DNA from: a virus
Reading direction: 5' to 3' (one strand)
Virus record (IMG/VR): IMGVR_UViG_3300042691_052885
Coordinates: 2,255-66,254 of that record
DNA: 64,000 bases
Shown: positions 8,726 to 64,000 of the stretch, piece by piece
Position numbering within the stretch: the stretch's first letter is position 1
Layout: each line of letters opens with the position of its first letter
Program-made: the position numbers and the translations under genes
The notes under the pieces: generated by a model
Told to the model about the DNA's origin: nothing
Seen by the model: the letters and a program-made list of their open reading frames with translations, nothing else
Database searches by the model: none

Positions 8726-8800
8726 TGTTAATAACTTTAGACCCATAGATTTTTTTCTATGGGTTTTTTGTTTTATTTTTATACTATCAAATTAAATTAT
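8726..8800 (+). repeat. Gene-leading cassette element copy 1 (box + hairpin + T-tract + -7 element)
   Basis: TGTTAATAAC...CCCATAGA-T6-TCTATGGG-TTTTTT...TATTTTTATACTATCAAATT, ATG at 8801. Confidence 0.9.
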
Positions 8801-11364: not shown

Positions 11365-11599
11365 AGAACTAAAGGCTTATATCCTACAGAAGTATTCTTT
11401 TTTGGATTCCAGAAAATTTGATATTGTAAAGGTAGGAGTACGAATCTATATGTATTATGTAGATCGTGAAGGCAATCTTGCTCGTGAACAGGTATTTCAA
11501 GGTCATCTCCCATCAATCCAGGGGGTGCCAAAATTGCGTGAACGGCTTGATCAATTAATTGAGTATGCCGTTAAAAAATGGCAGGGTGTTAATAACTAA
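11345..11599 (+). CDS. Hypothetical protein
   Basis: 84-aa ORF; its last codons overlap repeat copy 2. Confidence 0.55.
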   Translation: MQINRTKELKAYILQKYSFLDSRKFDIVKVGVRIYMYYVDREGNLAREQVFQGHLPSIQGVPKLRERLDQLIEYAVKKWQGVNN

Positions 11600-18367: not shown

Positions 18368-21300
18368 ATGGCTAAAATCACTCTCGACCTGAATAAATTT
18401 AAGGCATCTGGTGTATACACCATCGAATTTGATGCCTCCGAGAGAATCGTTGTAACTACCCAAACTATTCGTTTGGTGGTTGGTTTCTCACGCATAGGTC
18501 CTATTAACGCACCGGTATTTTTAAGAGACATAAATACCAGTCGCAGAATTTTTGGAGAAATTGACACCTTCCTTGAGAAGCGTGGATCTTTCTTCCATCG
18601 TGCACTTGAGACATGTTTGTCTGTTGGGCCGGTATTTGCACTGAACCTAATGCCTCTTAAGAGTAAACCAATTAATGAAGGCGGCGATGCAACAAACTAT
18701 CGTAGTTTTGCATTGGCGGCTGATGAGGAAAACGGTCCTGTAACCCGCGCATTAGTAACATCATTCTATAACCAAGAGCGTTTTTGGTTTCCAGATGCTG
18801 AGTATGTAATTGCAACACAGGATGCAAAGCCTGTTAACCGTGATTATCTAATGACAGTGGTAAACCTTTCACAAGCTCCGTTGTCCGTACTTGTTAGAAA
18901 ATCTACAAATGCACGTCAATATGAAATTGCTGCAAAGGATTATTATGGTTTAGGTAATGTTCCTGACTTTATGAATGACAACGACTTTTTGTCTGACTTC
19001 TTCTTGGATCTTATCATTGTAGAAGGCGATTGGACAAATCTTGCCGTTCTTTCACAAGATCCTAATTATTCAAAGTATTTTGATACTCGCGGAATTAAGG
19101 CTGATCAATTAGATGCTTTCCTTTCTTTGGATAACATTACACTAGTAGGTGCATTTACTGGAACAATCATTCCTGATTTTGTAGATAACAATGGTTCAAA
19201 CCAAAACCTTGAAACTATTGTTAATGCTGCTGTTGGATTGACTGGAACTTTTATTGCAATCAACAATGCAAAGATTGAAGATTACGCAAATAGCTTACAT
19301 AAAATTGATACCATTGGTAATACCTTAATCAGTACTACTGATGATACAATTGACTTCTTATCTTACAACACCCCAATTAAGAGTATTGTTGAATTTACTG
19401 GAGCTGAGGATTTGAATCCTGCTGGTTCTATTGATGTAACAACTTATCAAAATCTTGATAATTCTACTTCAAACGCGTTTATTAAGTCATATCCTTTTGG
19501 CGGAGCTAGCGGTAAATTTAATAACGTATTGGTGTTGCCAAAGCCTGAGCCTGGTGATACTACGTTTTTACCAAGCCAGTATCAATATATCTTGGATAAT
19601 TTAAGTTCAAATTCTTTGATTCTTACTTATGGTGTAGATACATTGCAAACTGAAAAACCAAGTGACTATGTAAAGGTTGAAAACGTAATTGATACTGGTA
19701 CCTCTATTGAAATACAGTTAAGTACGCCTCTTCATACCACAACAAACTATGAGGACAGCTTTATTTTTACAGGTTCCGCTACCGCGGTTCCTTCTGCTGC
19801 TAATCAAATTGCAGTAACTGACTTAACACCAAAAGACGATTCCAACGGTGCACCTCACGTTCCGCAACAATACGATATTCTTTTGGTAGAAGCACCGGGT
19901 TTCTATAAATACTACGAGGTTCAATCTTATGTTGCAGGATCTAATGGTGGAACCGTTACTGTTAAGGACGACGTTGCTAATACATTATCTCCACAAGCTC
20001 CTTATTATCTTTCAAGGTATGCTGGAAAAGGCTTGAGCATTGATGATTACTCATCTTATGTTCAGCCCGCGGACATTAAAGTTACATTGTTTGCTGTTGA
20101 CTATACAGCTACTGCTGATAATTATGCCGTAACTGGCAATGCAACAAATATCAATGCAAATAACTCGGTTCCTTCACAGGGATACAACGCGCCTTTTCAA
20201 TTATCTGACACAAGAATATCTGAAATCTCAATTGCATTTACACCTACCGTAACTGTAAACAGTTTTGAAGGTATTGGAAGTCTTCTAAATCCAGGCAGCG
20301 TGCCTATTAACCCTGGTACCGGTTGGGACAGTATTGCTGCCACTGCATATAACGTTACGCAAGATCTTACTGAATCTGGTCCGTTTTATCTAAAAGAAAT
20401 TAATACTGCAGCGTTTCCTTCTGCTGGAACAAATTATGTAGTTCTTGTAGATGCTACAGGTGCTGATGTTGATTGGGGCGCAGCATCTTGGGCTTCTGGA
20501 GATACTATTAAGATTACAATGACTCAGTCCGGTGTTTCATTTACTGGAATACTTGACGTTGGATTAATTAGCATTGAAGGCGTTGACATCAATAAGCTTC
20601 AATATATTGAGTCTTATTCCAATTCAAAAATCACAAAGTCTGCAAATACAGGTTTGCTTGTTAATGAGGATAGCGTTAAATACTACTCTGGAAATTCTAC
20701 TTACAATTACTTGGGTATTATTAAGAACTGGAGTAAGTCTGCAACAACTGGAGAAAAATACATTTATTCTCAAGTTGCTTATGGTATAAAAGGTACAAAG
20801 GTTGTTCAGTACACTGATACTACTTTGTCAACCCGTGCTAACTTAACCTATGCAGAATTGAATAATACTTATGAAGATTCAATTGTATACGCCGATGGAT
20901 CTGGAACAACAAATGACTTGGCAGTTTATTCTTCTGTTGCAAAAAATATCAGTTCTAATGTAGAAATAATTGGAACTCTTTATGGCGGCGGAAAGAAATT
21001 CCAAGTAAGCAATGCAAATTCTTTGAATTTGAATGTAGGTGATTTGATTGTGGATAGCAGCGTAACTCCTAAACTTACCCGTGTAACTCAAAAGGTAAAG
21101 AAAGTGAATCCAGCTACTGGCGCTGTTACATATGAATACACTGTATTGGATGTTCCCGCAGTTGATACTGTAACAAACACCATTACTAAGTTTACTCCTA
21201 TTCAACAATTCTGTGATCGTTTACAATTTAGTTTGTTAAACGGATATGTATTGACTGATTATCATTTACCAAACAATACCGATACACAAATTGACAAAAT

Positions 21301-22291
21301 CTATAGTGTAATTGAAAACACCAATATCGGCAAAACACTTGCAAGCCGCGATATTATTTCCTTCCGTTACATTATTGATACATTTAATGGCGGTATTGCA
21401 CCTCAGATGGGTCCAAAATCAATCTTATCAAGATTGGCTAAAAACCGTCAAAAGTGTATGGCAATCTTGAATGCTCCATCAATTAAACAATTTGTTGAAA
21501 GCACAGATCCAAGATTTACTGAATTGCCAGATCCAAATGCTGGAATTCCAAAGCCAGTTCTTAATACTGATTATATTGCAACTGGTGGTAATTTGAGTCT
21601 TGGTCCAAGCTTCCGTTTTACTCTACCTGATGAAGATAACGGTGCTAAATTTATTGGTGTATTCTCACCAAACATTATTATCCGTGAAAATAACAAAAAT
21701 AAGAGCATTCCTCCAGCAGCTGACGTATCAAATAACTTTGTTCGTAAGTTTATCAATGGTCAACCATATTCAATTGTGGCTGGTCCAAGAAGAGGAGTTA
21801 TTTCTAATCCAAAATTTGCTGGTTTAGAGTATGAATTCTTATTGCAAGATCGTGAAAATCTTGAGCCAATCGGTATCAATCCAATTGTTACTGTAAAAGG
21901 TATCGGACCAATGATCTTCGCTAACCAAACCGCTTATCAAAAGACATTGTCTGCATTTAATAACTTACACGTTAGAGATTTGCTAATCACTATTGAAGAA
22001 GCAGTAGAAGATGTACTTGCACAGTATTTGTTTGAGTTCAACGACGCATCAACTCGTCTTGAAATCCGTACAATTGTTGAGAACTACCTTGACACTGTAA
22101 GAAATGCTGGCGGTGTTTATGACTTTGCTGTTATCATGGATGAAACTAACAATACTCCTGCAATCATTGACCAAAACTTTGGTATCATTGATATCGGACT
22201 TGAGCCAGCAAGAGGATTGCAAAAGTTCATCAACCGTGTAACAATATTGAAGACTGGTGCAATCTCTTCAGGTGGATTCAGCGCAGCATAA
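18368..22291 (+). CDS. Tail sheath protein (T4 gp18-like) with large internal insertion
   Basis: SGVYTIEFD N-terminus, AGPRRG, INPI, LHVRDLL, DETNNTPAIID C-terminus; late motif at 18326. Confidence 0.92.
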   Translation: MAKITLDLNKFKASGVYTIEFDASERIVVTTQTIRLVVGFSRIGPINAPVFLRDINTSRRIFGEIDTFLEKRGSFFHRALETCLSVGPVFALNLMPLKSKPINEGGDATNYRSFALAADEENGPVTRALVTSFYNQERFWFPDAEYVIATQDAKPVNRDYLMTVVNLSQAPLSVLVRKSTNARQYEIAAKDYYGLGNVPDFMNDNDFLSDFFLDLIIVEGDWTNLAVLSQDPNYSKYFDTRGIKADQLDAFLSLDNITLVGAFTGTIIPDFVDNNGSNQNLETIVNAAVGLTGTFIAINNAKIEDYANSLHKIDTIGNTLISTTDDTIDFLSYNTPIKSIVEFTGAEDLNPAGSIDVTTYQNLDNSTSNAFIKSYPFGGASGKFNNVLVLPKPEPGDTTFLPSQYQYILDNLSSNSLILTYGVDTLQTEKPSDYVKVENVIDTGTSIEIQLSTPLHTTTNYEDSFIFTGSATAVPSAANQIAVTDLTPKDDSNGAPHVPQQYDILLVEAPGFYKYYEVQSYVAGSNGGTVTVKDDVANTLSPQAPYYLSRYAGKGLSIDDYSSYVQPADIKVTLFAVDYTATADNYAVTGNATNINANNSVPSQGYNAPFQLSDTRISEISIAFTPTVTVNSFEGIGSLLNPGSVPINPGTGWDSIAATAYNVTQDLTESGPFYLKEINTAAFPSAGTNYVVLVDATGADVDWGAASWASGDTIKITMTQSGVSFTGILDVGLISIEGVDINKLQYIESYSNSKITKSANTGLLVNEDSVKYYSGNSTYNYLGIIKNWSKSATTGEKYIYSQVAYGIKGTKVVQYTDTTLSTRANLTYAELNNTYEDSIVYADGSGTTNDLAVYSSVAKNISSNVEIIGTLYGGGKKFQVSNANSLNLNVGDLIVDSSVTPKLTRVTQKVKKVNPATGAVTYEYTVLDVPAVDTVTNTITKFTPIQQFCDRLQFSLLNGYVLTDYHLPNNTDTQIDKIYSVIENTNIGKTLASRDIISFRYIIDTFNGGIAPQMGPKSILSRLAKNRQKCMAILNAPSIKQFVESTDPRFTELPDPNAGIPKPVLNTDYIATGGNLSLGPSFRFTLPDEDNGAKFIGVFSPNIIIRENNKNKSIPPAADVSNNFVRKFINGQPYSIVAGPRRGVISNPKFAGLEYEFLLQDRENLEPIGINPIVTVKGIGPMIFANQTAYQKTLSAFNNLHVRDLLITIEEAVEDVLAQYLFEFNDASTRLEIRTIVENYLDTVRNAGGVYDFAVIMDETNNTPAIIDQNFGIIDIGLEPARGLQKFINRVTILKTGAISSGGFSAA

Positions 22292-23959: not shown

Positions 23960-24197
23960 GATTGAGTATTATTTGCTTAAGCAACTAAAACTACAACCTA
24001 GTGAATTGGACCGTCTTGAATTTTGGAGAGCGGAAACCTTAATTGAAATTCATAAGGATAAGACAGAAGAGGAAAACCGAAGAAGGAAAAAGGAAAATGA
24101 GCAGCAGGGCGCGTCGGTACCAAGTATGGGATCCTTTATGAATCAACAACAGAGCATGTACAAAAATTTAAGTAGTGGCTTAAAAATGCCAAAGTAA
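23919..24197 (+). CDS. Frameshift-accessed C-terminal chaperone segment (GT-like)
   Basis: No ATG near start; LQPSELDRLEFWR motif typical of GT C-termini; overlaps the end of the upstream ORF. Confidence 0.65.
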   Translation, partial: LFSLFQISLTNWSEIEYYLLKQLKLQPSELDRLEFWRAETLIEIHKDKTEEENRRRKKENEQQGASVPSMGSFMNQQQSMYKNLSSGLKMPK

Positions 24198-24229
24198 AGC
24201 TTGGGGAACTCCCAAGCTTTTTCTTTTTT
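24196..24229 (+). terminator. Rho-independent terminator followed by late promoter
   Basis: AAAGCTTGGG-gaact-CCCAAGCTTT + T-rich tail; GATATATAG at 24230. Confidence 0.85.
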
Positions 24230-24256
24230 GATATATAGAAAAAGTCTCGTTAATAC

Positions 24257-27200
24257 ATGGCAGCAAGAGATACCGCTCTTCTCGGTGAAATCCTTAGTAC
24301 GCAAAAAGCAATTCTTGCTAAGCTCAATGAAATGGGCCGGGAAAAGGAAGATGAGAAAAAAGCTGGAGCGCCTGGCTCGCCAAATGTTCCAGGTGCACCA
24401 AATACACAGATTCAAAATGGGGGTGGCGTTGGCGGTTTTAACGAAATGCTTGCTGAGCTTAAGAGTCTGAATGAAACAAATAAAGAGCAGCTCACAGTAT
24501 TAAAAAGTATTGACAAAAAAATTGCAGGCGGATCTGGTACTGGTGGCGGCATAAAGGTTGATAATACCATAGGAGAAAAACTAGAATCAATTGGCGGCGG
24601 TATGGTATCGTTGGCAGTTGGCATGGTTGCCTTAGTTGGCGGATTGCTGTTTACTCTTTTGTTGGTTCCAGCCGCGCCATTTCTTTTAATCTCCTTGACG
24701 GTATTAGCGCTATCAATAAAAGTGCTGACCTCAATATATGAAAAGTTAGGAGGCGAAGAATTTGCACAGACAATAGTAAACGGAAAGAAGGCCTTGTTTG
24801 GCATGGCAACTGGCATAGGAATGTTTACGCTTTCCATTGTGTTGTCTTCACTTGCACTTGAATTAGTAAGTGGTGGTCAGTTAGCCGTTCTTGGATTAAC
24901 GATGGTTGGTTTTGCTGGTCTGTTTTTCTTATTAGGAAAAGGCGGCGAAACTATTCAAAAAGGAGCAAAGGCAGCCGCATGGATGGGAATTGGAATGGCT
25001 TCAATTGCTCTTGGTATAGTTTCCCTTGCAATTGGTATCAGAGCAGCCGGCGAAATACTAACGGGCAACGGGGCAAACGCATTAGTTGGCGGTCTTGCTG
25101 CTATTGGTATAGTATCGGTATCAGCAATTGTTTTTGGGATAATCGGCCTTGCTGGAAATACTATACGAGAAGGCGCAATGACGGTGGGTGTTATGGGTCT
25201 TGGACTTGCTGCATTTGGTCTTGGACTTGCGGTTTATCTTACACAAATTGCTGGAATTCTTGGTGTTGGCGGCGGCGGAATTGCAGGCGGTACAAAAATA
25301 TCTGGAGGATTCTTTGAAACCGTAGGATCCATGTTAGTTGGTCTTGGCGTAATTGCAGTAGGTGCAGTAACCCTTGCCTTATACGGAACTATATTTGCTC
25401 TTGCCGGGCAGGCTGAATTAGGAATACCCGAAGCCATTTTGATGGGATCAATATCAATGGCAGCGGCTTCTCTGTCTCTTATAGTTTTTGGGTTTGGACT
25501 TGATTACTATTTAGGTGTGGTTGCTAAACATGCCGGAGTATCTGGCGAAGGTAAAGAAATGTCAATTACCGCGGAATCTTTTGTTAGCGGTGGAGTTGTA
25601 ATGGCTGGAGGCTTAGGTCTTCTTTTAGGCGTTGGTAGTTTGTTTGCGCTAGCAGGTACGGTATCTCCGCTTATTATTTTAGGAGCAGCTGCAATCGGTG
25701 CTACTGGAGTGGCAATACTTTCATTAGGATTTGGCATTAATAAGTTTATGGAACTGGTGCCGCCTGGCTCAAATATAGGAGAAGAGCTGGAAACAAATCT
25801 TGTAACTATACGGGATGCCATGCTGGCATTTGTAGGTCAAGAGGATATTAATAGTGGTGGAGTTGTTGGCGCGTTCAAAGGGCTTCTTAAAGGGGCAGCA
25901 ACTGGTGGCGCATTAGCTTTCGCTATATTAAATGCCATGATGTTAGGCCCGGCACTTAGCAGTATTGCTTCGGGTATTGGATCATGGGCAAATCTTCAGA
26001 ACATTCCAAAAATTAAAGGTTATGACGATAAAGGTCAACCGATATATGATACTACACAAACTGCAAATGTTGATCAGGCATTAAAGAATATAACTGAGTA
26101 CTTACCAAAAATAATGCAGCCGTTTGTGGATTTGTCAAATACCGCAAATCTGCAACAGGAAGAAAGCCTGCTTTCAATGATGACTGGAATTAATTTCGGT
26201 ACATCACCGTTTAATCGAGGTATACGCGCTGCGGCTGGTATTGGTGAAACCTTAAGTTCAATTGCTCAAGGTTTAAGCGTATTTTCAAATCTTACGCAAG
26301 CCCCAAAAATAATAGGTTACGACGACAGAGGTCAGCCTATTTTTGATAAAGGCCAGACTGTTAATATGCTGGATGCAACCAAGAATCTATTTGATATTCT
26401 TAGTGTTGATGGTCCAGGCAGTGTAATTGCTCCGTTTGTAAATTTATCAAAAGAGGCAGGACTACAAGAAGGTGGTTCTTGGCTGAAAATGATAATAGGC
26501 ACAGATTTTGGTTCTTCTCCTTTTGAACGCGGTATAACTATCAGTGGAAAAATTGGAGCAACCTTAAGTGCAATTGCAAAAGGTGTAGGTGTATTTGCAA
26601 ATTTAACGCAAGCTCCACTAATTACTGGGTATGACGAAAACGGGCAACCTATTTTTGGTGGAACCATTAATGCATTAGATGCAATCGGCAATTTAGGAAA
26701 GATTCTTGGTACAACCGGTGAAGGTAGTTTGGTTGCTCCGTTTATTGCTCTTGGGCAAAACGCTGCACTCGATGAACCGTTTTCGCTTGGCGGATACATG
26801 ATGAAAATGATGTACGGTGTTTCCACTGGTGAATCCGATTTTGATAAAGGTTTGCGAGTTGCGCTATCAATGGGAGAAGTGGTATCAAATTTTGGAGCGG
26901 GCTTAGGGCAGCTTGCAAATCTTGCCTCCATTCCAGTAATTAAAAGCTATGATAAACAAGGTCGTCCAGTTTACGGCGAACCAATAAACGGCCTATCTGC
27001 AATTTCCAATTTAGGAACTATAATGGGTCAGTTAATGCAAGAATTTGCAAAGGCGTCCAAAACCATTGGCCCATACGGGGATCCCGAATCAATGGAAGCA
27101 ATCGGTCCACTTGTTAGTGGAGTTCTTGGTGGAATTGTGGAATCACTAGATATTTTCTCCAATCCGGATAAGCTTAAGAAGATAAAAGGTTACGATGCAA

Positions 27201-28192
27201 ATGGCAAGCCAATCTATTATGAAGATCAGTTTGTAAGCGTCAATCAGGTAATAACAAATATGATTAATGTTATTACACGAATGGTAAAAGCTTTAGCAGA
27301 TCCTGCAATTGTAGACGCGTTAGATGAACTTGATCTTGCGGATGATGGAATGGAAATTGGACCGTTCTTAACGCAATTCATAGAGCCAATACAAAAATTA
27401 GTCGAAGTTGAAAAGACCGCTGGCAATACTCTTAATAACATTGGTTGGGGAATTGGTGAAGGCATTAAATACATTGCAATTGCTGCTAAATTTACCCAAG
27501 AAGCCAACATTCAAAGCAGCCTAAAAGATGTAGGTAAAGGACTTGGAGTATACGCTGAGAGTTTAGGTGAATTGGCAGAGGTTGCTACTGATATTAAAGA
27601 AAAGGAATTAGATCCATTTAAGTCAATTTATTCTACACTAGAAATAAATGTAAAAGATCCCAAGAAGAGAACTTATCTTGCACAGTTTACTGATGAAATT
27701 ACTCGTCTGTCCTGGACCGCTACCGCGTTTGAAAAGTTTGTAAACTCTTTTGGAAAAATGGCAAAGGACATGAAAATCTTTGCTGAAAACTTTAAGATTA
27801 TGGATTCCGACGCTATTAATGCGTTTAGCACCTGGACAGAATCTATTGTTACCTTAAGCACAGCAAACCCTGAAACGTTTTCCGCAAATGTTATCACTGC
27901 TAATAAAGCTATTAATGCCGGATTTGGAATGAATGATGGAAATACCGGTACGATGGAACCATCCGATGCTGTAACTGGAAATGTACCTGCCGCGCAAAAA
28001 ACGGCGGCAATTAAGGACGCTAATAATCCAAACGCGGCAGCAGCTCCTGGCGTAGCAAAGACAGAAAAACCTGGTACTATTGATTACGCAAAATTGCAGC
28101 AAGCGTTTCAAGCAGCTCTGGAAGCTGCAACTGTTGACGTTAAGGTATCATCCACTGATGCCGAAATAATAATAGGAAACAGAAGAAAATAA
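24257..28192 (+). CDS. Tape measure protein
   Basis: 1311 aa, Gly/Ala-rich with hydrophobic helices and internal repeats; canonical position after the chaperones. Confidence 0.75.
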   Translation: MAARDTALLGEILSTQKAILAKLNEMGREKEDEKKAGAPGSPNVPGAPNTQIQNGGGVGGFNEMLAELKSLNETNKEQLTVLKSIDKKIAGGSGTGGGIKVDNTIGEKLESIGGGMVSLAVGMVALVGGLLFTLLLVPAAPFLLISLTVLALSIKVLTSIYEKLGGEEFAQTIVNGKKALFGMATGIGMFTLSIVLSSLALELVSGGQLAVLGLTMVGFAGLFFLLGKGGETIQKGAKAAAWMGIGMASIALGIVSLAIGIRAAGEILTGNGANALVGGLAAIGIVSVSAIVFGIIGLAGNTIREGAMTVGVMGLGLAAFGLGLAVYLTQIAGILGVGGGGIAGGTKISGGFFETVGSMLVGLGVIAVGAVTLALYGTIFALAGQAELGIPEAILMGSISMAAASLSLIVFGFGLDYYLGVVAKHAGVSGEGKEMSITAESFVSGGVVMAGGLGLLLGVGSLFALAGTVSPLIILGAAAIGATGVAILSLGFGINKFMELVPPGSNIGEELETNLVTIRDAMLAFVGQEDINSGGVVGAFKGLLKGAATGGALAFAILNAMMLGPALSSIASGIGSWANLQNIPKIKGYDDKGQPIYDTTQTANVDQALKNITEYLPKIMQPFVDLSNTANLQQEESLLSMMTGINFGTSPFNRGIRAAAGIGETLSSIAQGLSVFSNLTQAPKIIGYDDRGQPIFDKGQTVNMLDATKNLFDILSVDGPGSVIAPFVNLSKEAGLQEGGSWLKMIIGTDFGSSPFERGITISGKIGATLSAIAKGVGVFANLTQAPLITGYDENGQPIFGGTINALDAIGNLGKILGTTGEGSLVAPFIALGQNAALDEPFSLGGYMMKMMYGVSTGESDFDKGLRVALSMGEVVSNFGAGLGQLANLASIPVIKSYDKQGRPVYGEPINGLSAISNLGTIMGQLMQEFAKASKTIGPYGDPESMEAIGPLVSGVLGGIVESLDIFSNPDKLKKIKGYDANGKPIYYEDQFVSVNQVITNMINVITRMVKALADPAIVDALDELDLADDGMEIGPFLTQFIEPIQKLVEVEKTAGNTLNNIGWGIGEGIKYIAIAAKFTQEANIQSSLKDVGKGLGVYAESLGELAEVATDIKEKELDPFKSIYSTLEINVKDPKKRTYLAQFTDEITRLSWTATAFEKFVNSFGKMAKDMKIFAENFKIMDSDAINAFSTWTESIVTLSTANPETFSANVITANKAINAGFGMNDGNTGTMEPSDAVTGNVPAAQKTAAIKDANNPNAAAAPGVAKTEKPGTIDYAKLQQAFQAALEAATVDVKVSSTDAEIIIGNRRK

Positions 28193-31092: not shown

Positions 31093-31171
31093 TGTTAATA
31101 ACTTTATCACAAATAGTTTTTTTCTTTAATTAAAATGTATTATTTTTATCCTATCAATAAAAAACAAATAT
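31093..31171 (+). repeat. Cassette element copy 3 (hairpin degenerate)
   Basis: TGTTAATAACT...GTATTATTTTTATCCTATCAA, ATG 31172. Confidence 0.8.
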
Positions 31172-36433: not shown

Positions 36434-36513
36434 TGTTAATAACTTTTTGTTAAAACATTTTTCTATGTGGTTCTTTTGTATTATTTTTATTCTATCAAAT
36501 TAATACTGATAAC
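36434..36513 (+). repeat. Cassette element copy 4
   Basis: TGTTAATAACT...GTATTATTTTTATTCTATCAAATT, ATG 36514. Confidence 0.8.
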
Positions 36514-37477: not shown

Positions 37478-37553
37478 TGTTAATAACTATAGTCCCAAAG
37501 ATTTTTTTCTTTGGGTTTTTTGTATTATTTTTATCTTATCAAATTAATTAAAT
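37478..37553 (+). repeat. Cassette element copy 5
   Basis: CCCAAAGA-T6-TCTTTGGG perfect hairpin; ATG 37554. Confidence 0.9.
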
Positions 37554-40079: not shown

Positions 40080-40156
40080 TGTTAATAACTTTAGACCCAA
40101 AGATTTTTTTCTCTGGGTTTTTTGTATTATTTTTATCCTATCAAATTAATACTGAT
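40080..40156 (+). repeat. Cassette element copy 6
   Basis: CCCAAAGA-T6-TCTCTGGG; ATG 40157. Confidence 0.9.
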
Positions 40157-45045: not shown

Positions 45046-45124
45046 TGTTAATAACTAATTGCCCAAACATTTTTTTCTTTGGGTTTTTGGTATTATTTTT
45101 ATCCTATCAAATTAATAATTAAAT
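45046..45124 (+). repeat. Cassette element copy 7
   Basis: CCCAAACA-T6-TCTTTGGG; ATG 45125. Confidence 0.9.
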
Positions 45125-46394: not shown

Positions 46395-46814
46395 ATGAAA
46401 ATTAAAGACGGGAATAAAATTCCTGACCTGGTGGTATGGACGGAAGCTGACGGATTTGACGCCCGCTTAAAAAAGTACCCTACAAATCTAGGTGCGCCGG
46501 CTTTCGAGGCTCCTAATATGCAGCTTGCCAAAGCCGGCGCCGCTCAAAAAATGCTATCGGTATTTGAGCGGGAACGCCTTGAAATTATTGAAAAGATGAA
46601 GGACCTTTATGAAGAGTATGAAACTTCAATGATGGTATGGAACTCAAAAATTTCCTTTGAACCAATTGTTGGCCATACATATCATTTATACGAGTTCTCT
46701 TCCGGTAAAACTCTTTCATTGATTTCACCAAGCGAGTGGAAAAAACAGGATTGCTATATTGGCAGTTATACATTGACATCCGAAAACAAATGGAAAATTG
46801 TTAATAACTTTTAA
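46395..46814 (+). CDS. DUF2452-like protein
   Basis: FEPIVGHTYHLY...LSLISPSEW. Confidence 0.7.
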   Translation: MKIKDGNKIPDLVVWTEADGFDARLKKYPTNLGAPAFEAPNMQLAKAGAAQKMLSVFERERLEIIEKMKDLYEEYETSMMVWNSKISFEPIVGHTYHLYEFSSGKTLSLISPSEWKKQDCYIGSYTLTSENKWKIVNNF

Positions 46815-57215: not shown

Positions 57216-57292
57216 TGTTAACAACTAATTACCCAAAGATTTTTTTCTTTGGGTTTTTTGTTTTATTTTTATACTATCAAATTAATACTGAT
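57216..57292 (+). repeat. Cassette element copy 9
   Basis: TGTTAACAAC variant, perfect CCCAAAGA/TCTTTGGG hairpin; ATG 57293. Confidence 0.9.
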
Positions 57293-58036: not shown

Positions 58037-58310
58037 GCAAGAGAAGATTGATCAAGCAATCAAGGACCTAATCAACAAGATGTTTGAGATTGCTGGTCAT
58101 GATGTTACCTATGAAGATATCATAGGAAGAACAGACAACTGGTACACCAACTGGACTATGACTATGGCTCAGGCTGAGGAGTGGAAAGGTTGGGGTGTAG
58201 AATACCTACGCAAGAGTTTGAGAATGTCTAAACAAGCAGCAGAACGAGAAATGTTGTGGGCGAATTTACAATGGGGATTAAAATACGAAGACTATAGAGA
58301 TGGAAAATAA
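58017..58310 (+). CDS. Hypothetical protein
   Basis: 97-aa helical ORF. Confidence 0.6.
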   Translation: MAKRLSRQEKIDQAIKDLINKMFEIAGHDVTYEDIIGRTDNWYTNWTMTMAQAEEWKGWGVEYLRKSLRMSKQAAEREMLWANLQWGLKYEDYRDGK

Positions 58311-59421
58311 TAACTCAGTGTGCTATGTAGCACGCATAAACGAAATCAAACCAATCCCAGGTGCTGATAACATCGAACAAGGCGTAATCGGAGGATGGAA
58401 TTGTATTTTCAAGAAAGGGGAATACAAAGTAAATGACTTGGTAGCCATTGCTACAACAGATGCTGTTATACCCCAAGGGCTTTCAGATGCAATGAACGTG
58501 ACTAATTACTTACGCAAAGGACAACGTGTACGTACTGTGAAGCTGAGAGGGGTATATTCCGAGTGTTTAGTAATTCCTAACCAATTTTTACCGGTTGGCT
58601 ACAACCCAGAAGGTAAGGATCTGATGGATTCGTTGAGTATCTTCAAATACGAACCACCGGTAGTACAAGTACAATTGGCGTCAGGGCGTAAGATCAGATA
58701 CCACCAAAATCCTAACTTCCATGTCTATTACAAGTTTCCAAACTTAAAAAATGTGGCTGGAATGTTTAATGAAAACGATGCTGTAGAAATTACTCGTAAG
58801 TTGCATGGTACAAATGCTCGTTACGGTATTGTAAAGAAGACCAGGCTTTCCATTTTAGATCGAATAAAGAAATTCTTGAGAATCGGAAAACATATCGAAT
58901 ATGAATTTGTATACGGCTCTCATAACGTAGAAAAAGGATCGGATTCACAAGGTTTTTATGACACGGATGTTTGGAAGACAATTGCAGAAAAACATAACAT
59001 TCGAGAAAAGCTTTGGAATTTATTTGATTTGTCAAAGGACCTATATGATATTCAAGAAGGAATTGTAATTTACGGAGAAATCTATGGTCCTGGAATCCAG
59101 AAAAATTATGACTATGGATTGACTGAATTAAAATACGCAGGATTTGATGTTACAATCAATGGTCAATATTGTGAAGGCGCCAGAAGTTTTGCAATTCATA
59201 ATATCATGGGACTTGATTATGTTCCTGAATTGTATATTGGTCTTTGGTCGCAGGAAATACAAGACAAATACACTTTCAATAACTTTATTGAAGGAACCCA
59301 AATTCCGCATGAAGGTATTGTTATCAAATCTATAGATGGCAATCGACAAAAAGTTGCTAAGGTAATTAATCCGGATTATTTGATCTATGGAGAAAAGCAT
59401 GATGTTGGCGACAGCCATTAA
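58300..59421 (+). CDS. ATP-dependent RNA ligase (Rnl2/DRB0094-like)
   Basis: PIPGADNIE OB domain, KLHGTN motif I, GEIYGPGIQ, FD, EGIVIK. Confidence 0.88.
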   Translation: MENNNSVCYVARINEIKPIPGADNIEQGVIGGWNCIFKKGEYKVNDLVAIATTDAVIPQGLSDAMNVTNYLRKGQRVRTVKLRGVYSECLVIPNQFLPVGYNPEGKDLMDSLSIFKYEPPVVQVQLASGRKIRYHQNPNFHVYYKFPNLKNVAGMFNENDAVEITRKLHGTNARYGIVKKTRLSILDRIKKFLRIGKHIEYEFVYGSHNVEKGSDSQGFYDTDVWKTIAEKHNIREKLWNLFDLSKDLYDIQEGIVIYGEIYGPGIQKNYDYGLTELKYAGFDVTINGQYCEGARSFAIHNIMGLDYVPELYIGLWSQEIQDKYTFNNFIEGTQIPHEGIVIKSIDGNRQKVAKVINPDYLIYGEKHDVGDSH

Positions 59422-59424
59422 TTT

Positions 59425-59502
59425 TGTTAATAACTTTAGGCCCAGAGATTTTTTTCTCTGGGTTTTTTGTATTATTTTTATCCTATCAAATTTATACTGA
59501 AT
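59425..59502 (+). repeat. Cassette element copy 10
   Basis: CCCAGAGA-T6-TCTCTGGG; ATG 59503. Confidence 0.9.
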
Positions 59503-59709
59503 ATGAATAACACAACAAATACTTACACATTCCTTGGAACCCGCTGGGTACCTGGTTACAACGATTTTGATTTTGATGATTTCACAATTATCGCTACCAA
59601 TGAAACGGAGGCATGGGATATTCTTTGGAAATTGAGTGGAAGATTTACCTGGGGAGAAGTCAACCTGGTGTACATTAACGGTGAGTTGGTTGAAAGGGAA
59701 AATTGTTAA
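59503..59709 (+). CDS. Small acidic protein, single-gene cassette
   Basis: Bounded by repeat copies 10 and 11; its stop is the TAA of TGTTAA. Confidence 0.7.
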   Translation: MNNTTNTYTFLGTRWVPGYNDFDFDDFTIIATNETEAWDILWKLSGRFTWGEVNLVYINGELVERENC

Positions 59710-59780
59710 TAACTTTTGGCCAAAACATTTTTTTCTTTGGGTTTTTGGTATTATTTTTATCCTAACAAAATTAATCATAT
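59704..59780 (+). repeat. Cassette element copy 11
   Basis: TGTTAATAACTTTTGGCCAAAACATTTTTTTCTTTGGG...; ATG 59781. Confidence 0.9.
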
Positions 59781-60986
59781 ATGGAACTAACTGTTGCAAA
59801 ACAAACATTCAAAAAGGTATCAGACATTGAGGTACCAGAAAAACTCTTTAACACCATCAAAACCGATTCTCCGGAACTGGACAATGTCCTTTCGGAAATA
59901 GGTGGTATGGTCCCATCGCAAGTTGTACTGGTAACGGGGAATCCTGGATCTGGAAAAACAACTCTTTGCGCGGTGGTAGGTTCCCGAATTGCGGAACGCG
60001 ATTCCCGCCCGGTAGTTTTCCTTTCCTATGAAATGTCCGACTTCCAATTAAAACTGCAGGCCAAGAAAATTGCAGGTTTCAATTCGCTGCTTGTAAGTAC
60101 TCACGAGTTTCATACACAGCCTGGCGGTATTGATACCTTGTTCCAAGCCCTGGATAGTCTGGATCCATCAATGGTTATTGTGGACTCACTACAGAAAATG
60201 GCTTCTAAAATGCCAGATGGTCCAACCCGCGGACAAGTGGTTTTGGTGGAGCGGTTTACCAAATGGGCCAAGACCTCCTTTACGCCAGTTATGCTGATTG
60301 GCCACAACGATAAAGGTGGAAACTATGCAGGTCCATCGTTCCTCAAACACGAGGTGGACTCACATATGACGGTATGGTTTGACAAGGAAATCCGTGAGCG
60401 TCTCTTTTCCATGAGTAAGAACCGTTTTGGTGGAAACATGGAAAGTTATTCTTTCCGCATCACTCCCGACGGAGTCTTTATCGGTTCGGAATGGTGGAAT
60501 CTTGTAGACAGCCAGACTTCCGATGATGTTCGGGATATGATAATGGACTACAAAGGCAGTTCCACTGGGGAATCGCTAAACTGGGAAAAGTTTAAGGATT
60601 CCGCGGAAACCTTGGTTTCCTACCTTAACCGTAAGCACGCCGAGCGGTTCCCGACAAACACCTTTATTGGTTCCACTGATAAGATCAAACTCACGTGGGA
60701 AGGCCGCCGTGCTTTTTGCAACTACAAAACTGGTCAAATCAATTTCGGTAAGAAGTTTTTTGATCGGGTAACTGACAAATCTTGGGATCGCGTAGGCTAC
60801 CGTTCCGAGCGTCCGTTTATCCATGCACACGTAAAGAACAAGGAGGAGGCCGCCCTTTGGGTTATCCTACATGAATGGGTGCATCTCTTCAAAGGTTATC
60901 AGCATCATACCAAGAAAATGTGGAAAGAAATCTCTCGAATTGCAAATGAGGAATCCTGGTTATGGTCTGTGCCTGCCACGGCATAA
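59781..60986 (+). CDS. RadA/Sms-like ATPase fused to SprT-like zinc metalloprotease
   Basis: GNPGSGKTT, DSLQ, AGP..LKHEVD, KNRFG; C-terminal LHEWVH...HH. Confidence 0.8.
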   Translation: MELTVAKQTFKKVSDIEVPEKLFNTIKTDSPELDNVLSEIGGMVPSQVVLVTGNPGSGKTTLCAVVGSRIAERDSRPVVFLSYEMSDFQLKLQAKKIAGFNSLLVSTHEFHTQPGGIDTLFQALDSLDPSMVIVDSLQKMASKMPDGPTRGQVVLVERFTKWAKTSFTPVMLIGHNDKGGNYAGPSFLKHEVDSHMTVWFDKEIRERLFSMSKNRFGGNMESYSFRITPDGVFIGSEWWNLVDSQTSDDVRDMIMDYKGSSTGESLNWEKFKDSAETLVSYLNRKHAERFPTNTFIGSTDKIKLTWEGRRAFCNYKTGQINFGKKFFDRVTDKSWDRVGYRSERPFIHAHVKNKEEAALWVILHEWVHLFKGYQHHTKKMWKEISRIANEESWLWSVPATA

Positions 60987-60990
60987 TCAT

Positions 60991-61067
60991 TTAATATAAG
61001 ATTAACATTCAGTTAATACCTAGTTAACATTGAGGTATTATTTTTATTCTATCAAAATTAATAAAAA
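60991..61067 (+). promoter_or_regulatory. Promoter with four 11-bp-phased TTAAYA direct repeats (copy A)
   Basis: TTAATA 60991, TTAACA 61002, TTAATA 61013, TTAACA 61024, then GGTATTATTTTTATTCTATCAAA. Confidence 0.8.
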
Positions 61068-61376
61068 ATGGAAAAACACAATCTTCAATTAACTGACAAA
61101 GAAAACAAAGTTTTGGAAACCTTCATCAGTAGCCTCTATGCTGAACCCGGTTTTTCTGACGTAGATGCACATGATCTCTCAAGAGATACTGGAATCTCTA
61201 CCCGTTCAATCCGCGGAGTACTCTCTTCCTTGGTTCAAAAAGGCATTATTACAATCGTTGGAAACTATGCTGGTTATCAAATCATCTACCTTAATGAAAG
61301 TTACTGGTACTTACATCCTGAATGGAAAACCGAATACGAGTTTAGAACAGAGAATTACGTTGCATCAAAATCTTAA
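61068..61376 (+). CDS. Winged-helix DNA-binding protein
   Basis: LTDKENKVL...DLSRDTGISTRSIRGVLSSLVQKGII. Confidence 0.75.
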   Translation: MEKHNLQLTDKENKVLETFISSLYAEPGFSDVDAHDLSRDTGISTRSIRGVLSSLVQKGIITIVGNYAGYQIIYLNESYWYLHPEWKTEYEFRTENYVASKS

Positions 61377-61825: not shown

Positions 61826-62429
61826 TCTTGAACGCATTAAGCCGCTTCTCAATTATTCTGAGCCTGGCGATTTCTATATGCTCTATGTTTTTAAGCGTAA
61901 GAAAGACCAGCCCGCGGAGGACCGTGATAATCATCAGTCAGTTCGTACCATTAAGACTTATTGTATTGAGAGTATTGAACACCTGGAAAGTCGGTACGAT
62001 GAAATCAAACAGCTGTGCGAAATGTTTAAGGCTCGAGCCTACATTCATGTTCAAAAGCAAAATCACCATGATGTTTCCTTAAATATGATGGTGGCCTTGG
62101 CCGAACGCATTCGTAACGGCCAAACCAATCAAAAAGGATTGTTTGACTCTGTGGTTGGACAAATCAAAACTCAGGAGAAGAGATGGATTGTTGATATTGA
62201 TACGAAAGACGAAGTAGACGTTCACAGGGCCGCGCACATCATTGATGGCATTCGACCCGACGGCCCAAAAATTGAGGCAGTCATTCCTACCAAGAACGGC
62301 TATCATTTTATTACCAAGCGTTTTGATGTACGGGAATTTGACAGAAGAATCTGTGAGTTTGGTCAGGTACCGGACATTCAGAAGAAAAATCCAACTCTCC
62401 TCTACCTGCCAAATAGTTTAAATTGTTAA
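61815..62429 (+). CDS. AEP (primase-polymerase) fold protein
   Basis: WIVDID and PTKNGYHFI motifs; start reassigned to ATG 61815. Confidence 0.6.
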   Translation: MINNLERIKPLLNYSEPGDFYMLYVFKRKKDQPAEDRDNHQSVRTIKTYCIESIEHLESRYDEIKQLCEMFKARAYIHVQKQNHHDVSLNMMVALAERIRNGQTNQKGLFDSVVGQIKTQEKRWIVDIDTKDEVDVHRAAHIIDGIRPDGPKIEAVIPTKNGYHFITKRFDVREFDRRICEFGQVPDIQKKNPTLLYLPNSLNC

Positions 62430-62500
62430 TAACTTTTGGCCAAAACATTTTTTTCTTTGGGAAAAATGTATTATTTTTATTCTATCAAAATTAATCATAT
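62424..62500 (+). repeat. Cassette element copy 12
   Basis: 5' half identical to copy 11; contains the upstream stop; ATG 62501. Confidence 0.88.
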
Positions 62501-62767
62501 ATGGAAAACACAAACAAAGCAATCCCGGAAAATCTTTACCAAGATGATCTCAATGTTAACCTTTACGAATACATCTTGGAAGATGGCGAGGAGTTAACAC
62601 TTAAAGAATTAAAGGAACTGAATGCCGCTGGGTACGTCTACCATTCAGAACAGACTGACATCGATTTTGAGGACGAATTTAATGGTGCTCCTTGGATCCG
62701 CAGTATGAATATCTACTACTTCTCCAAAGCCGCAGAAAACATTCACGAAAACCAAATCCCTGCCTAA
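62501..62767 (+). CDS. Small acidic protein
   Basis: Follows the repeat; D/E-rich. Confidence 0.65.
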   Translation: MENTNKAIPENLYQDDLNVNLYEYILEDGEELTLKELKELNAAGYVYHSEQTDIDFEDEFNGAPWIRSMNIYYFSKAAENIHENQIPA

Positions 62768-62768
62768 T

Positions 62769-62999
62769 ATGAAAGCACAATTTGCCGATACCAATGGCCT
62801 GGAATACACATTCAATCCTGCTGCCACTCTTACAGTTCTCATTCGCAACCGCTGGGTAGAAACTGACCCGTACTTCTTCCGCTCTTGGGGAGGCCAACGA
62901 CAGGTCAATGGAAAAACCTACGAAGGCCCAGTTTACAATTTAGGAAGCAATTTAATAGAAGCACCGGTTACACAAACCGCAAAACACATAGCACAATGA
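62769..62999 (+). CDS. Hypothetical protein
   Basis: FRSWGG.R..NG..YEGPVY motif. Confidence 0.6.
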   Translation: MKAQFADTNGLEYTFNPAATLTVLIRNRWVETDPYFFRSWGGQRQVNGKTYEGPVYNLGSNLIEAPVTQTAKHIAQ

Positions 63000-63628
63000 A
63001 AGAATACTTATTGAAAATCACTGCCTACGAATTTGAAGAACTCACCGACGAGGCACAAGCACGAGCAATTGAAAACTCACGATATTCCGAAGTGGAACAT
63101 GATAACTGGTACTTGCCAGTATACGAGGATCATACGGATCAGCTTGCACAGGTAGGTGTTGCGGACCCAACAATTCGTTTTAGTGGTTTCTTCTCGCAAG
63201 GCGACGGGGCCTGCTTTATGTCAGACAACATAAATCTGCCAGTATTACTTGCTGCCATGAAAGACGGCGGTTACCGTGTGGACCCGGTATGGGAAACGGA
63301 AGCCATAAGTGGAGCCTTAACAGTGGACATCCAAAAAGGCACTGCAAGTTTCTGCTACCACTATGATCATTCCAATACCATTACTGCCTATGCCCAGTAT
63401 GTGGGAGACCTGATGAGCTCTGCCGAGGTCGCGGATTTTGAGGACGCGGTTACACGGTGGGCCAAGAAAACCGCGGACAGTATTTGCCGAGATTTGGAAA
63501 GCTTCTACAACGAGCTTACCTCCGATGAGTACATTTCCGATCTGCTCATTGCAGGTGGAAACCTCTTTGACCAACGCGGTAATCCGGTAATCATTGGTCC
63601 GGGTACGGAATGTATTAGCGAGGGATAA
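62996..63628 (+). CDS. Conserved acidic phage protein
   Basis: YEFEELTDEAQARAI, FSGFFSQGDGACF motifs; ATGA overlap. Confidence 0.7.
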   Translation: MKEYLLKITAYEFEELTDEAQARAIENSRYSEVEHDNWYLPVYEDHTDQLAQVGVADPTIRFSGFFSQGDGACFMSDNINLPVLLAAMKDGGYRVDPVWETEAISGALTVDIQKGTASFCYHYDHSNTITAYAQYVGDLMSSAEVADFEDAVTRWAKKTADSICRDLESFYNELTSDEYISDLLIAGGNLFDQRGNPVIIGPGTECISEG

Positions 63629-63631
63629 CAT

Positions 63632-63708
63632 TTAACATAAGGTTAACATTCCCTTAATAATGAGTTAACATTGAGGTATTATTTTTATTCTAACAAATTA
63701 ATTAATAT
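63632..63708 (+). promoter_or_regulatory. Promoter with four 11-bp-phased TTAAYA direct repeats (copy B)
   Basis: TTAACA 63632, TTAACA 63643, TTAATA 63654, TTAACA 63665, then the same core. Confidence 0.8.
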
Positions 63709-64000
63709 ATGGTACATACAAATCACACCGCAATCCAACAAGTTATTTCAGCTGTAGCTGAACAATGGAACATCACTGCTGCTGACATTATCGGTCCCCG
63801 CCGTACAGGTGCAATTGCTCAAGCCCGTCAGGCTTCAATGGCAATCTGCTACTGGAACGGTTACGGTAATCTGAAAGCAATCGCGGCAAGTCATAACCGT
63901 GACAACCATGGAACAGTACTTCATGCCTGTAACGCGGTGGAAGCGGATACCCGCCGTAACCCTCAATATAAAGCAAAGGTAATGGCTGTTACCGCTGCAC
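63709..64000 (+). CDS. Stand-alone DnaA domain IV (DNA-binding) protein, runs off the window end
   Basis: VISAVAEQWNITAADIIGPRRTGAIAQARQASMAI...LKAIA...RDNHGTVLHACNAV aligns with DnaA VAEYY..DLLSKRR....RQMAM...RDHTTVLHAC. Confidence 0.85.
   Translation, partial: MVHTNHTAIQQVISAVAEQWNITAADIIGPRRTGAIAQARQASMAICYWNGYGNLKAIAASHNRDNHGTVLHACNAVEADTRRNPQYKAKVMAVTAA

Follow-up and report, generated by a model that had tools for sequence, protein, structure and literature searches.

A stand-alone DnaA domain IV, here called mini-DnaA, is encoded at the very end of a 64,000-nucleotide stretch of viral DNA (the window; bases 2255-66254 of a 66,254-base contig), and the same stretch carries a class of promoters that open with a DnaA-box-like word at a fixed distance from the promoter core. 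Compared with chromosomal sequences the word is a natural variant of the Bacteroidota DnaA box, and the phage boxes are probably functional sites for DnaA domain IV proteins. The case was built from domain identity, motif statistics, fixed geometry and the chromosomal match, all observed in sequence.

The contig has no terminal repeat, and the long ORFs of the window are all on the + strand. PHROGs matches in the window were an SbcC-like nuclease subunit, a portal, a large terminase and a tail sheath. By the large terminase the closest cultured phages (Sphingomonas phage PAU, Tenacibaculum phages PTm1 and PTm5 and the Prevotella Lak phages) are only 33-39% identical, and uncultured megaphages are also among the nearest terminase matches at this level of identity. 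Related IMG/VR fragments are 100-202 kb long and rated 35-66% complete. The terminase and PHROG matches, together with the size of these part-complete relatives, indicate that the window is a piece of a jumbo myovirus. No match to GenBank phages was found by megablast with the window end, and a scan of bacterial genome contigs revealed no close bacterial or prophage copy of mini-DnaA, the best hits, at 46% identity, being chromosomal DnaAs. The tail sheath ORF (18368-22291) encodes 1307 aa; its PHROG sheath match covers only residues 966-1296 or so, the N-terminal 960 or so residues being unmatched. A second very long ORF, 24257-28192 (1311 aa), has no PHROG match, and the 24001-26000 interval in this ORF has a GC of 0.44, against about 0.37, with a GC skew of 0.24.

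The first-pass annotation had read the last ORF of the window as a clear DnaA domain IV with no AAA+ domain upstream, and both claims hold. Pfam Bac_DnaA_C (PF08299) matched residues 9-77 over its full profile (1-69/69) with an E-value of 6.9e-15 and 55.3 bits, the cut-off being 31.5. Only 8 residues lie ahead of the domain in the protein; AAA+ domain III and the N-terminal domain I, both parts of a full-length initiator DnaA (TIGR00362), are absent. Directly 5' of the gene there is a promoter-like spacer, preceded by the stop codon of an unrelated ORF (62885..63628) in another frame, which indicates that mini-DnaA has no AAA+ module. The ORF (63709..63999, + strand, 97 aa) is open at the window end; since this is also the contig end, the truncation stems from the assembly and is not biological. 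The members of 15 related 90%-clusters are all exactly 98 aa long, so that the contig end removes only the last residue. One relative (P0006) agrees with the window protein at all 97 residues and has one more, a Leu, at its end, thereby supplying the C-terminus of the 98-aa full-length protein, and another copy (L001), 74% identical, terminates after residue 98. The AlphaFold2 model built with the family alignment has six helices and a pLDDT of 93.3, and the best PDB matches found by Foldseek were 3pvp and 1j1v, two DnaA DNA-binding domains on DNA (TM 0.83-0.86, rmsd 1.2 A). By profile and predicted structure, mini-DnaA is thus a domain-IV-only DnaA. The window and the other viral contig with a mini-DnaA gene (G005:C1:1845-2048) both end within 2 kb of the gene, and assemblies may be breaking in this cassette-rich region.

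An ungapped HMMER alignment to E. coli DnaA (1j1v) equates R399 with R32, R407/Q408 with R40/Q41, H434 with H67, T436 with T69 and H439 with H72, and these mini-DnaA residues are invariant in 16 family members. Eight E. coli positions are base-specific (399, 423, 432-435 and 438-439), according to the relevant passages of PMC5043019; such residues are also named in a passage of PMC7561715, and a passage of PMC5742627 has R399 reading the 5' TTA and the helix reading the 3' TnCACA. Four of the eight are changed in mini-DnaA, namely P423 to K56 (variable), R432 to D65, D433 to N66 (invariant) and T435 to G68 (A in relatives), and its specificity may consequently differ from that of host DnaA. 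In a local alignment, N433 together with A435 was common to Bacteroidales-type chromosomal DnaAs, most sampled Bacteroidota DnaAs having RDHST. Three mini-DnaA clades could be distinguished, and in all of them D433 is replaced by N or Q. The second clade stands at 38-40% identity; the third, on a contig found by the box pattern only, is 93 aa long and has the helix KQHGS.

The word TGTTAAYAAC occurs 13 times in the window against 0.48 expected, and none of 100 shuffles reached 13. Twelve of these copies are on the + strand, and each opens the same promoter cassette, in which the box is followed by a T-loop hairpin, GTATTATTTTTATCCTATCAAATTAA and an ATG 73-80 nt from the box start (counted where the ATG opens an ORF of at least 40 aa). 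The box lies 41 nt before the core TTTTAT, always in the same orientation. The 12 promoters with a box at a fixed distance proposed in the first-pass annotation are therefore confirmed, as is its variant ninth copy. We take the sole - strand copy (42039) as chance, because no cassette surrounds it and both strands carry long ORFs at this place. The exact bottom-strand word TTATTAACA is present 11 times in the contig against about 2 expected, 11 out of 11 copies falling in cassettes, and only this TA variant is enriched. Hairpin stability varies: 5 of the 12 cassettes fold at -11 kcal/mol or below, and 3 reach -2.5 at best. Many relatives have a weak hairpin or none, while box and core are unchanged. 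When the contig was searched with the core promoter only, 14 cassette promoters were recovered, 12 with a single box and two (61035 and 63676, beyond those already annotated) with a different upstream module, an array of four sites.

Scanning IMG/VR with a gapped pattern gave 88 stretches, of which those with the 41-nt gap are true cassettes. Stretches with a total length of 50-58 were dropped as unrelated repeats of other phages, and two further ones, L059 (61) and L074 (62), do not look like cassettes. Cassettes with the 41-nt gap were counted in 20 contigs, a figure that leaves out L074 despite its 41-nt gap, and amount to 55 unique cassettes including those of the window; a few others have a longer gap (+11 nt in L093) or one shifted by about 1 nt. 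PTm1 contains only 3-4 box words, none of them in a cassette context. Two small genes at 62501-62999 have homologues in the related contig L095 (6117-6473 and 9377-9616) that are placed differently relative to mini-DnaA, which fits a cassette-mediated shuffling of gene order as judged from the two sequences.

Two features point to promoters of the host Bacteroidota type. The Bacteroidetes -7 consensus given in a passage of PMC2483708 is TAnnTTTG; the cassette cores of relatives contain a perfect match (TATATTTG) and those of the window TATTTTTA, a 7/8 match. A conserved ATTTT run is found about where a -33 element is expected; the hairpin stem also has a TTTG, which lies no more than 12 nt away from the -7 word. 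Of the 70 window ORFs of at least 100 aa, only 5 have an SD-like word in front of them. It is from the -7 word match and the scarcity of SD words that we assign the promoters to this type. Judging from these sequence features, the phage is an uncultured jumbo myovirus with Bacteroidota housekeeping-type promoters, of which the window is a fragment, and with a start predicted from the -7 word the box would lie at about -50 to -60.

Table 1. Mini-DnaA gene, promoter elements and box motifs in the window.
Feature	Position	Strand	Remark
Cassette box 1, TGTTAATAACTTT (bottom strand AAAGTTATTAACA)	8726..8738	+	motif match
Cassette box 2	11587..11599	+	motif match
Cassette box 3	31093..31105	+	motif match
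Cassette box 4	36434..36446	+	motif match
Cassette box 5	37478..37490	+	motif match
Cassette box 6	40080..40092	+	motif match
Cassette box 7	45046..45058	+	motif match
Cassette box 8	46799..46811	+	motif match
Cassette box 9, variant TGTTAACAAC (box position 3 A->G)	57216..57228	+	motif match
Cassette box 10	59425..59437	+	motif match
Cassette box 11	59704..59716	+	motif match
Cassette box 12	62424..62436	+	motif match
Second array, four TTAAYA half-boxes (60991, 61002, 61013, 61024)	60991..61029	+	11-bp spacing; before promoter 61035
102-aa winged-helix-like protein	61068..61376	+	DnaD_N 26.1 bits (cut-off 27), TrmB weak; array-type promoter upstream
Four TTAAYA half-boxes (63632, 63643, 63654, 63665)	63632..63670	+	exact 11-bp spacing; adjoins mini-DnaA core promoter upstream
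Mini-DnaA core promoter (GTATTATTTTTATTCTAAC...)	63676..63701	+	TATTTTTA, one base off the -7 word TAnnTTTG
Mini-DnaA gene, stand-alone DnaA domain IV	63709..64000	+	ATG; 97 codons visible, contig end cuts gene

One of the two array promoters drives mini-DnaA itself and the other precedes the winged-helix-like gene. In both arrays the half-boxes are opposite in orientation to the single boxes and reach into the -33 region, and each unit matches only 5-6 of the 9 box positions. In E. coli the cooperative filling of such arrays requires the AAA+ domain, which mini-DnaA does not possess. Just upstream of the array-type promoters lie genes for a KaiC/RecA/DnaB_C-like ATPase (59781-60986) and an RNA ligase with an OB-fold domain (58300-59421).

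The site arrangement at the mini-DnaA promoter was compared between related contigs. Arrays are found in the window and in L098, and a head-to-head pair, (G)ATAACAA-T-TTGTTAACAC, in L001/L091/L092 (one locus), L094, L095, L096 and L099. In L100 and L103, which belong to the second clade (38-40% identity), the promoter has two full boxes at a distance of 20-21 bp; L108 combines a partial with a full box, L093 has one box with a longer gap (+11), and L105 has no site. Overall, 10 of the 12 distinct loci have at least two sites at this promoter, compared with 1 of the 13 other promoters of the window. One or two small genes next to mini-DnaA are preceded by these operators as well, so that the operators mark a small local group and not mini-DnaA alone.

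To characterize DnaA boxes on Bacteroidota chromosomes we used 41 genomes of the phylum of Millionella massiliensis, which gave 30 dnaA loci, 25 of them usable (three had no ORF by our filter and two no upstream sequence). In 9,764 nt upstream of these 25 genes (400 nt each) we found 64 copies of TTATNNACA, compared with one in 35,000 nt of dnaA coding sequence and none in a reversed control. The NN dinucleotide of the 64 sites is CC in 31, CA in 19, TA in 5, GC in 3, TC and AA in 2 each, and GA and CG in 1 each; TA, which corresponds to TTATTAACA, is thus the third commonest variant. Position 6 is C or A, once G and never T, and the three 5' flanking positions are A in 40, A in 44 and G in 36 of the 64 sites. 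From these data we derive a Bacteroidota dnaA-side box, aAAG-TTATyMACA, in which A is tolerated at position 6. The phage box agrees with it in variant, in AAG flank and in orientation: AAAG-TTATTAACA is present in 8 of the 12 boxes, TTAG in 3 and ATAG in 1, and the phage orientation relative to the downstream gene is that of 57 of the 64 chromosomal boxes. The first-pass annotation had placed the word one position off the DnaA box. It is indeed not a 9/9 match to the E. coli consensus TTATNCACA, TTATTAACA having A for C at position 6, and the comparison with oriC-like and dnaA-side boxes, run at the level of the phylum, indicates that this word is a natural variant of the Bacteroidota box. Chromosomes mostly have CC or CA, whereas the phage uses the TA variant only.

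Other chromosomal sites resemble those of the phage. The exact 10-mer TGTTAATAAC occurs 11 nt before the dnaA ATG in one locus, neighbouring chromosomal boxes have a modal spacing of 11 bp (8 pairs), and in one low-GC MAG the dnaA promoter carries TTATTAACA twice plus TTATTCACA. The 2.9-Mb genome of M. massiliensis has only 13 exact TTATTAACA, 9 of them in three clusters, one of which is an intergenic oriC-like array of TTATCCACA, TTATTCACA and TTATCAACA plus three TTATTAACA. An apparent cluster of TTATTAACA-like words in Tidjanibacter turned out to be coding sequence and not an origin. In M. massiliensis, tandem pairs of TGTTAATAAtttTGTTAATAA (about 1885-1905 and 2331-2351 of G012:C1:1047500-1051500) flank some 440 bp of non-coding DNA; the adjacent ORFs, judged by their first residues, look capsid- and protease-like, and the region may be prophage-like and use the same DnaA-box variant.

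A second set comprised 26 dnaA loci, mostly of Rikenellaceae, recovered from metagenomes and genomes. In 21 of them the 350 nt upstream contain one or more TTATNNACA, and in 18 of these 21 the box lies at -38 to -71 from the ATG. The Rikenellaceae loci mostly have a single TTATNNACA in + orientation, 38-71 nt before the ATG, and the other sampled Bacteroidota several boxes in - orientation further upstream, so that from sequence there appear to be two dnaA-promoter layouts within the phylum. Upstream of dnaA in N433-type chromosomal loci (Rikenellaceae), box position 6 is mostly C (14 of 26 sites), and N66 (for D433) is therefore not supported as the cause of A at this position in the phage.

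The reading we prefer, tentatively and at a little under an even chance, is that host DnaA and mini-DnaA act in sequence, the truncated protein being a competitor and an autoregulator. Each cassette would carry a Bacteroidota-type DnaA box (AAAG-TTATTAACA on the bottom strand), a site for DnaA domain IV proteins. When infection begins, host DnaA would be the only such protein in the cell; bound to the boxes, it would assist RNA polymerase or gate it. The phage would then make its 98-aa domain IV, which keeps the basic-loop Arg and the His/Thr/His of the signature helix. Because it lacks the ATPase/oligomerisation and helicase-recruiting domains, mini-DnaA should compete with host DnaA at every DnaA box. 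On phage promoters this competition could act as a feedback or a temporal switch, and it would probably extend to the host origin and dnaA promoter, blocking host initiation. The several sites that reach the -33 region at its own promoter would make the mini-DnaA gene autoregulated. A circuit of this kind, with host DnaA and/or the phage protein on the boxes, had been proposed in the first-pass annotation; of its elements the domain IV protein, the DnaA box and the fixed geometry stand, and which protein binds, the sign of the regulation and the effect on the host are parts that we infer. That the boxed genes are early and follow the replication state of the host would be predictions of that circuit. 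We regard as rather unlikely a bolder form of the same scheme, in which every boxed promoter would depend on host DnaA as an activator placed at a fixed helical phase, phage expression thereby reading the replication status of the host, and mini-DnaA would then displace host DnaA everywhere, shut the boxed promoters and, through the multi-site operator, its own gene, and cap the host origin, stopping host replication.

Two observations bear on the respective shares of the two readers. The 10-mer of the box is invariant across phages whose mini-DnaAs are 37-40% identical and have the recognition helices DNHAT, KDNHAT and KQHGS, a pattern more readily explained by a conserved reader of the host than by a phage reader that evolves fast. 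The exclusive use of the TA variant and the special operators at the mini-DnaA gene, for their part, argue that the phage protein reads the boxes as well. PF08299 was found in 1 of 10 motif-bearing IMG/VR records (G001-G010; 14-66% complete), where about 3 would be expected if the gene were universal, a difference that is not significant, and the boxes may work without the phage protein; in two of these records (G001 and G002) the cassettes lie toward the contig ends. The four changed base-specific positions of mini-DnaA, the incomplete match of the array units together with the missing AAA+ domain, and the prevalence of CC and CA on chromosomes also speak against our preferred scheme.

An alternative that we consider improbable is that mini-DnaA is the phage's own dedicated factor, an activator or repressor tuned to TTATTAACA, with no meaningful part for host DnaA. 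It would account for the TA variant being the only one in every single-box cassette seen, for the replacement of D433 in all three mini-DnaA clades and for the multi-site operators at the mini-DnaA promoter, and the single, direct and inverted arrangements of sites suit a monomeric reader. However, the behaviour of N433-type chromosomal DnaAs means that N66 alone predicts no preference for A, the match of box and flank to chromosomal boxes implies that host DnaA should bind too, PF08299 was not found in the nine other motif-bearing fragments, and a 98-aa domain of this type has no known activation surface. Very unlikely, in our view, is a sink, whereby dozens of high-affinity boxes per genome, multiplied by phage replication, would titrate host DnaA from oriC, promoter position being secondary and mini-DnaA separately capping host boxes. 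Twelve consensus boxes in 64 kb are compatible with it, and passages of PMC5835720 describe plasmid-borne boxes and datA as established titrators of DnaA in E. coli. If the boxes served as a sink, neither their distance from a promoter nor their orientation or helical phase would have to be fixed. The 41-nt gap is nevertheless kept in 55 unique cassettes, with a few others at a longer gap or shifted by about 1 nt; moreover every cassette promoter is boxed, and exact TTATTAACA is confined to cassettes.

There is also little likelihood that TGTTAATAAC is read by some other regulator of phage or host, or by RNA polymerase as an upstream element, with mini-DnaA working elsewhere, for instance at a phage origin or host oriC. 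In its favour, GTTAATAAC forms a 4+1+4 palindrome, further candidate DNA binders are encoded in the window, among them the winged-helix protein at 61068 with the same array-type promoter, and mini-DnaA lies among replication-type genes (the KaiC/DnaB_C-like ATPase and, on reading the translation, a DnaB-like fragment at the contig start). Set against this, chance is a very unlikely source of a 12-13-nt match to the Bacteroidota chromosomal box family that includes both flank and orientation (four 12-mers of 4^12 per offset), and the palindrome fails for TGTTAACAAC, TTGTTAACAC and the TTAACAT arrays, which have only the asymmetric core TGTTAA in common. The palindromic operator GTTA-A-TAAC, put forward in the first-pass annotation as an alternative, is weakened accordingly, because TGTTAA occurs singly, directly repeated and inverted at spacings unfit for a rigid dimer; a search for WTAACAWTTTGKTAA with at most one mismatch in 5 large records gave one match, which is the control rate.

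DnaA initiates replication and at times acts as a transcription factor, and small binding proteins are a known means by which phages attack it. Mini-DnaA shares with the DnaA domain IV structures on DnaA boxes (E. coli 1J1V, M. tuberculosis 3PVP) the fold, the Pfam family, the basic-loop Arg and the His/Thr/His of the signature helix, but differs in being a free-standing 98-aa, phage-encoded protein without domains I-III and in positions 423, 432, 433 and 435 (K or variable, D, N, and G or A, respectively). DnaA-regulated promoters include that of dnaA, which is autoregulated, and lambda pR, where host DnaA acts. As in these, the phage boxes lie beside promoters and the regulator's own gene has several of them; ahead of Bacteroidota dnaA genes, too, the word is found in this orientation, no further than 400 nt from the ATG and mostly within about 300 nt. 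The phage, in contrast, has a whole promoter class (14 in 64 kb, to which related contigs add dozens of cassettes), a fixed 41-nt gap and its own truncated reader. E. coli oriC has arrays of low-affinity DnaA sites at 11-bp phasing, which the phage arrays, with four same-orientation partial boxes exactly 11 bp apart, resemble, except that they lie on two promoters and not at an unwinding element. T4-type phages have PeSL (promoter-early stem-loop) cassettes, likewise a repeated unit of hairpin and promoter between small genes whose order is shuffled between relatives; the unit described here differs in carrying a DnaA box and, in many relatives, a weak or absent hairpin with box and core fixed. 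With YfdR and YqaH, small phage or prophage proteins acting on DnaA, mini-DnaA would share the likely outcome, interference with host initiation; those proteins bind DnaA itself, whereas mini-DnaA would mimic its DNA-binding domain and compete for sites.

A full-text literature search returned, among the papers it covered, no phage stand-alone domain IV and no boxed phage promoters, and no printed description of a Bacteroidota DnaA box (aAAG-TTATyMACA, with A tolerated at position 6) was found; a comparative definition of this box is provided here. If our reading is correct, a giant phage has wired a promoter class through the recognition word of the host initiator and added a decoy of its DNA-binding domain, a strategy distinct from that of small DnaA-binding proteins. 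It would offer a directly testable case of a virus that couples its gene programme to host replication control and then overrides it.

Free-standing domain IV proteins extend beyond this phage group. A profile search of 1.84 billion representatives gave 3,772 proteins at E<=0.001; among the best 150 of these, 56 are at most 130 aa long, which indicates that such proteins are common in metagenomes. To our knowledge they have no assigned role, and one worked example would inform many of them. Searching GenBank phages with mini-DnaA by tblastn gave only 11 records, and several of these are apparently host DNA deposited under a phage name. Lastly, an unrelated small phage contig (L004, 8728-9179, and L042) encodes a 145-aa protein with an N-terminal coiled region and a domain-IV-like end (tblastn E about 1e-5), and immediately after the stop codon of this gene stands TGTTAATAAC.
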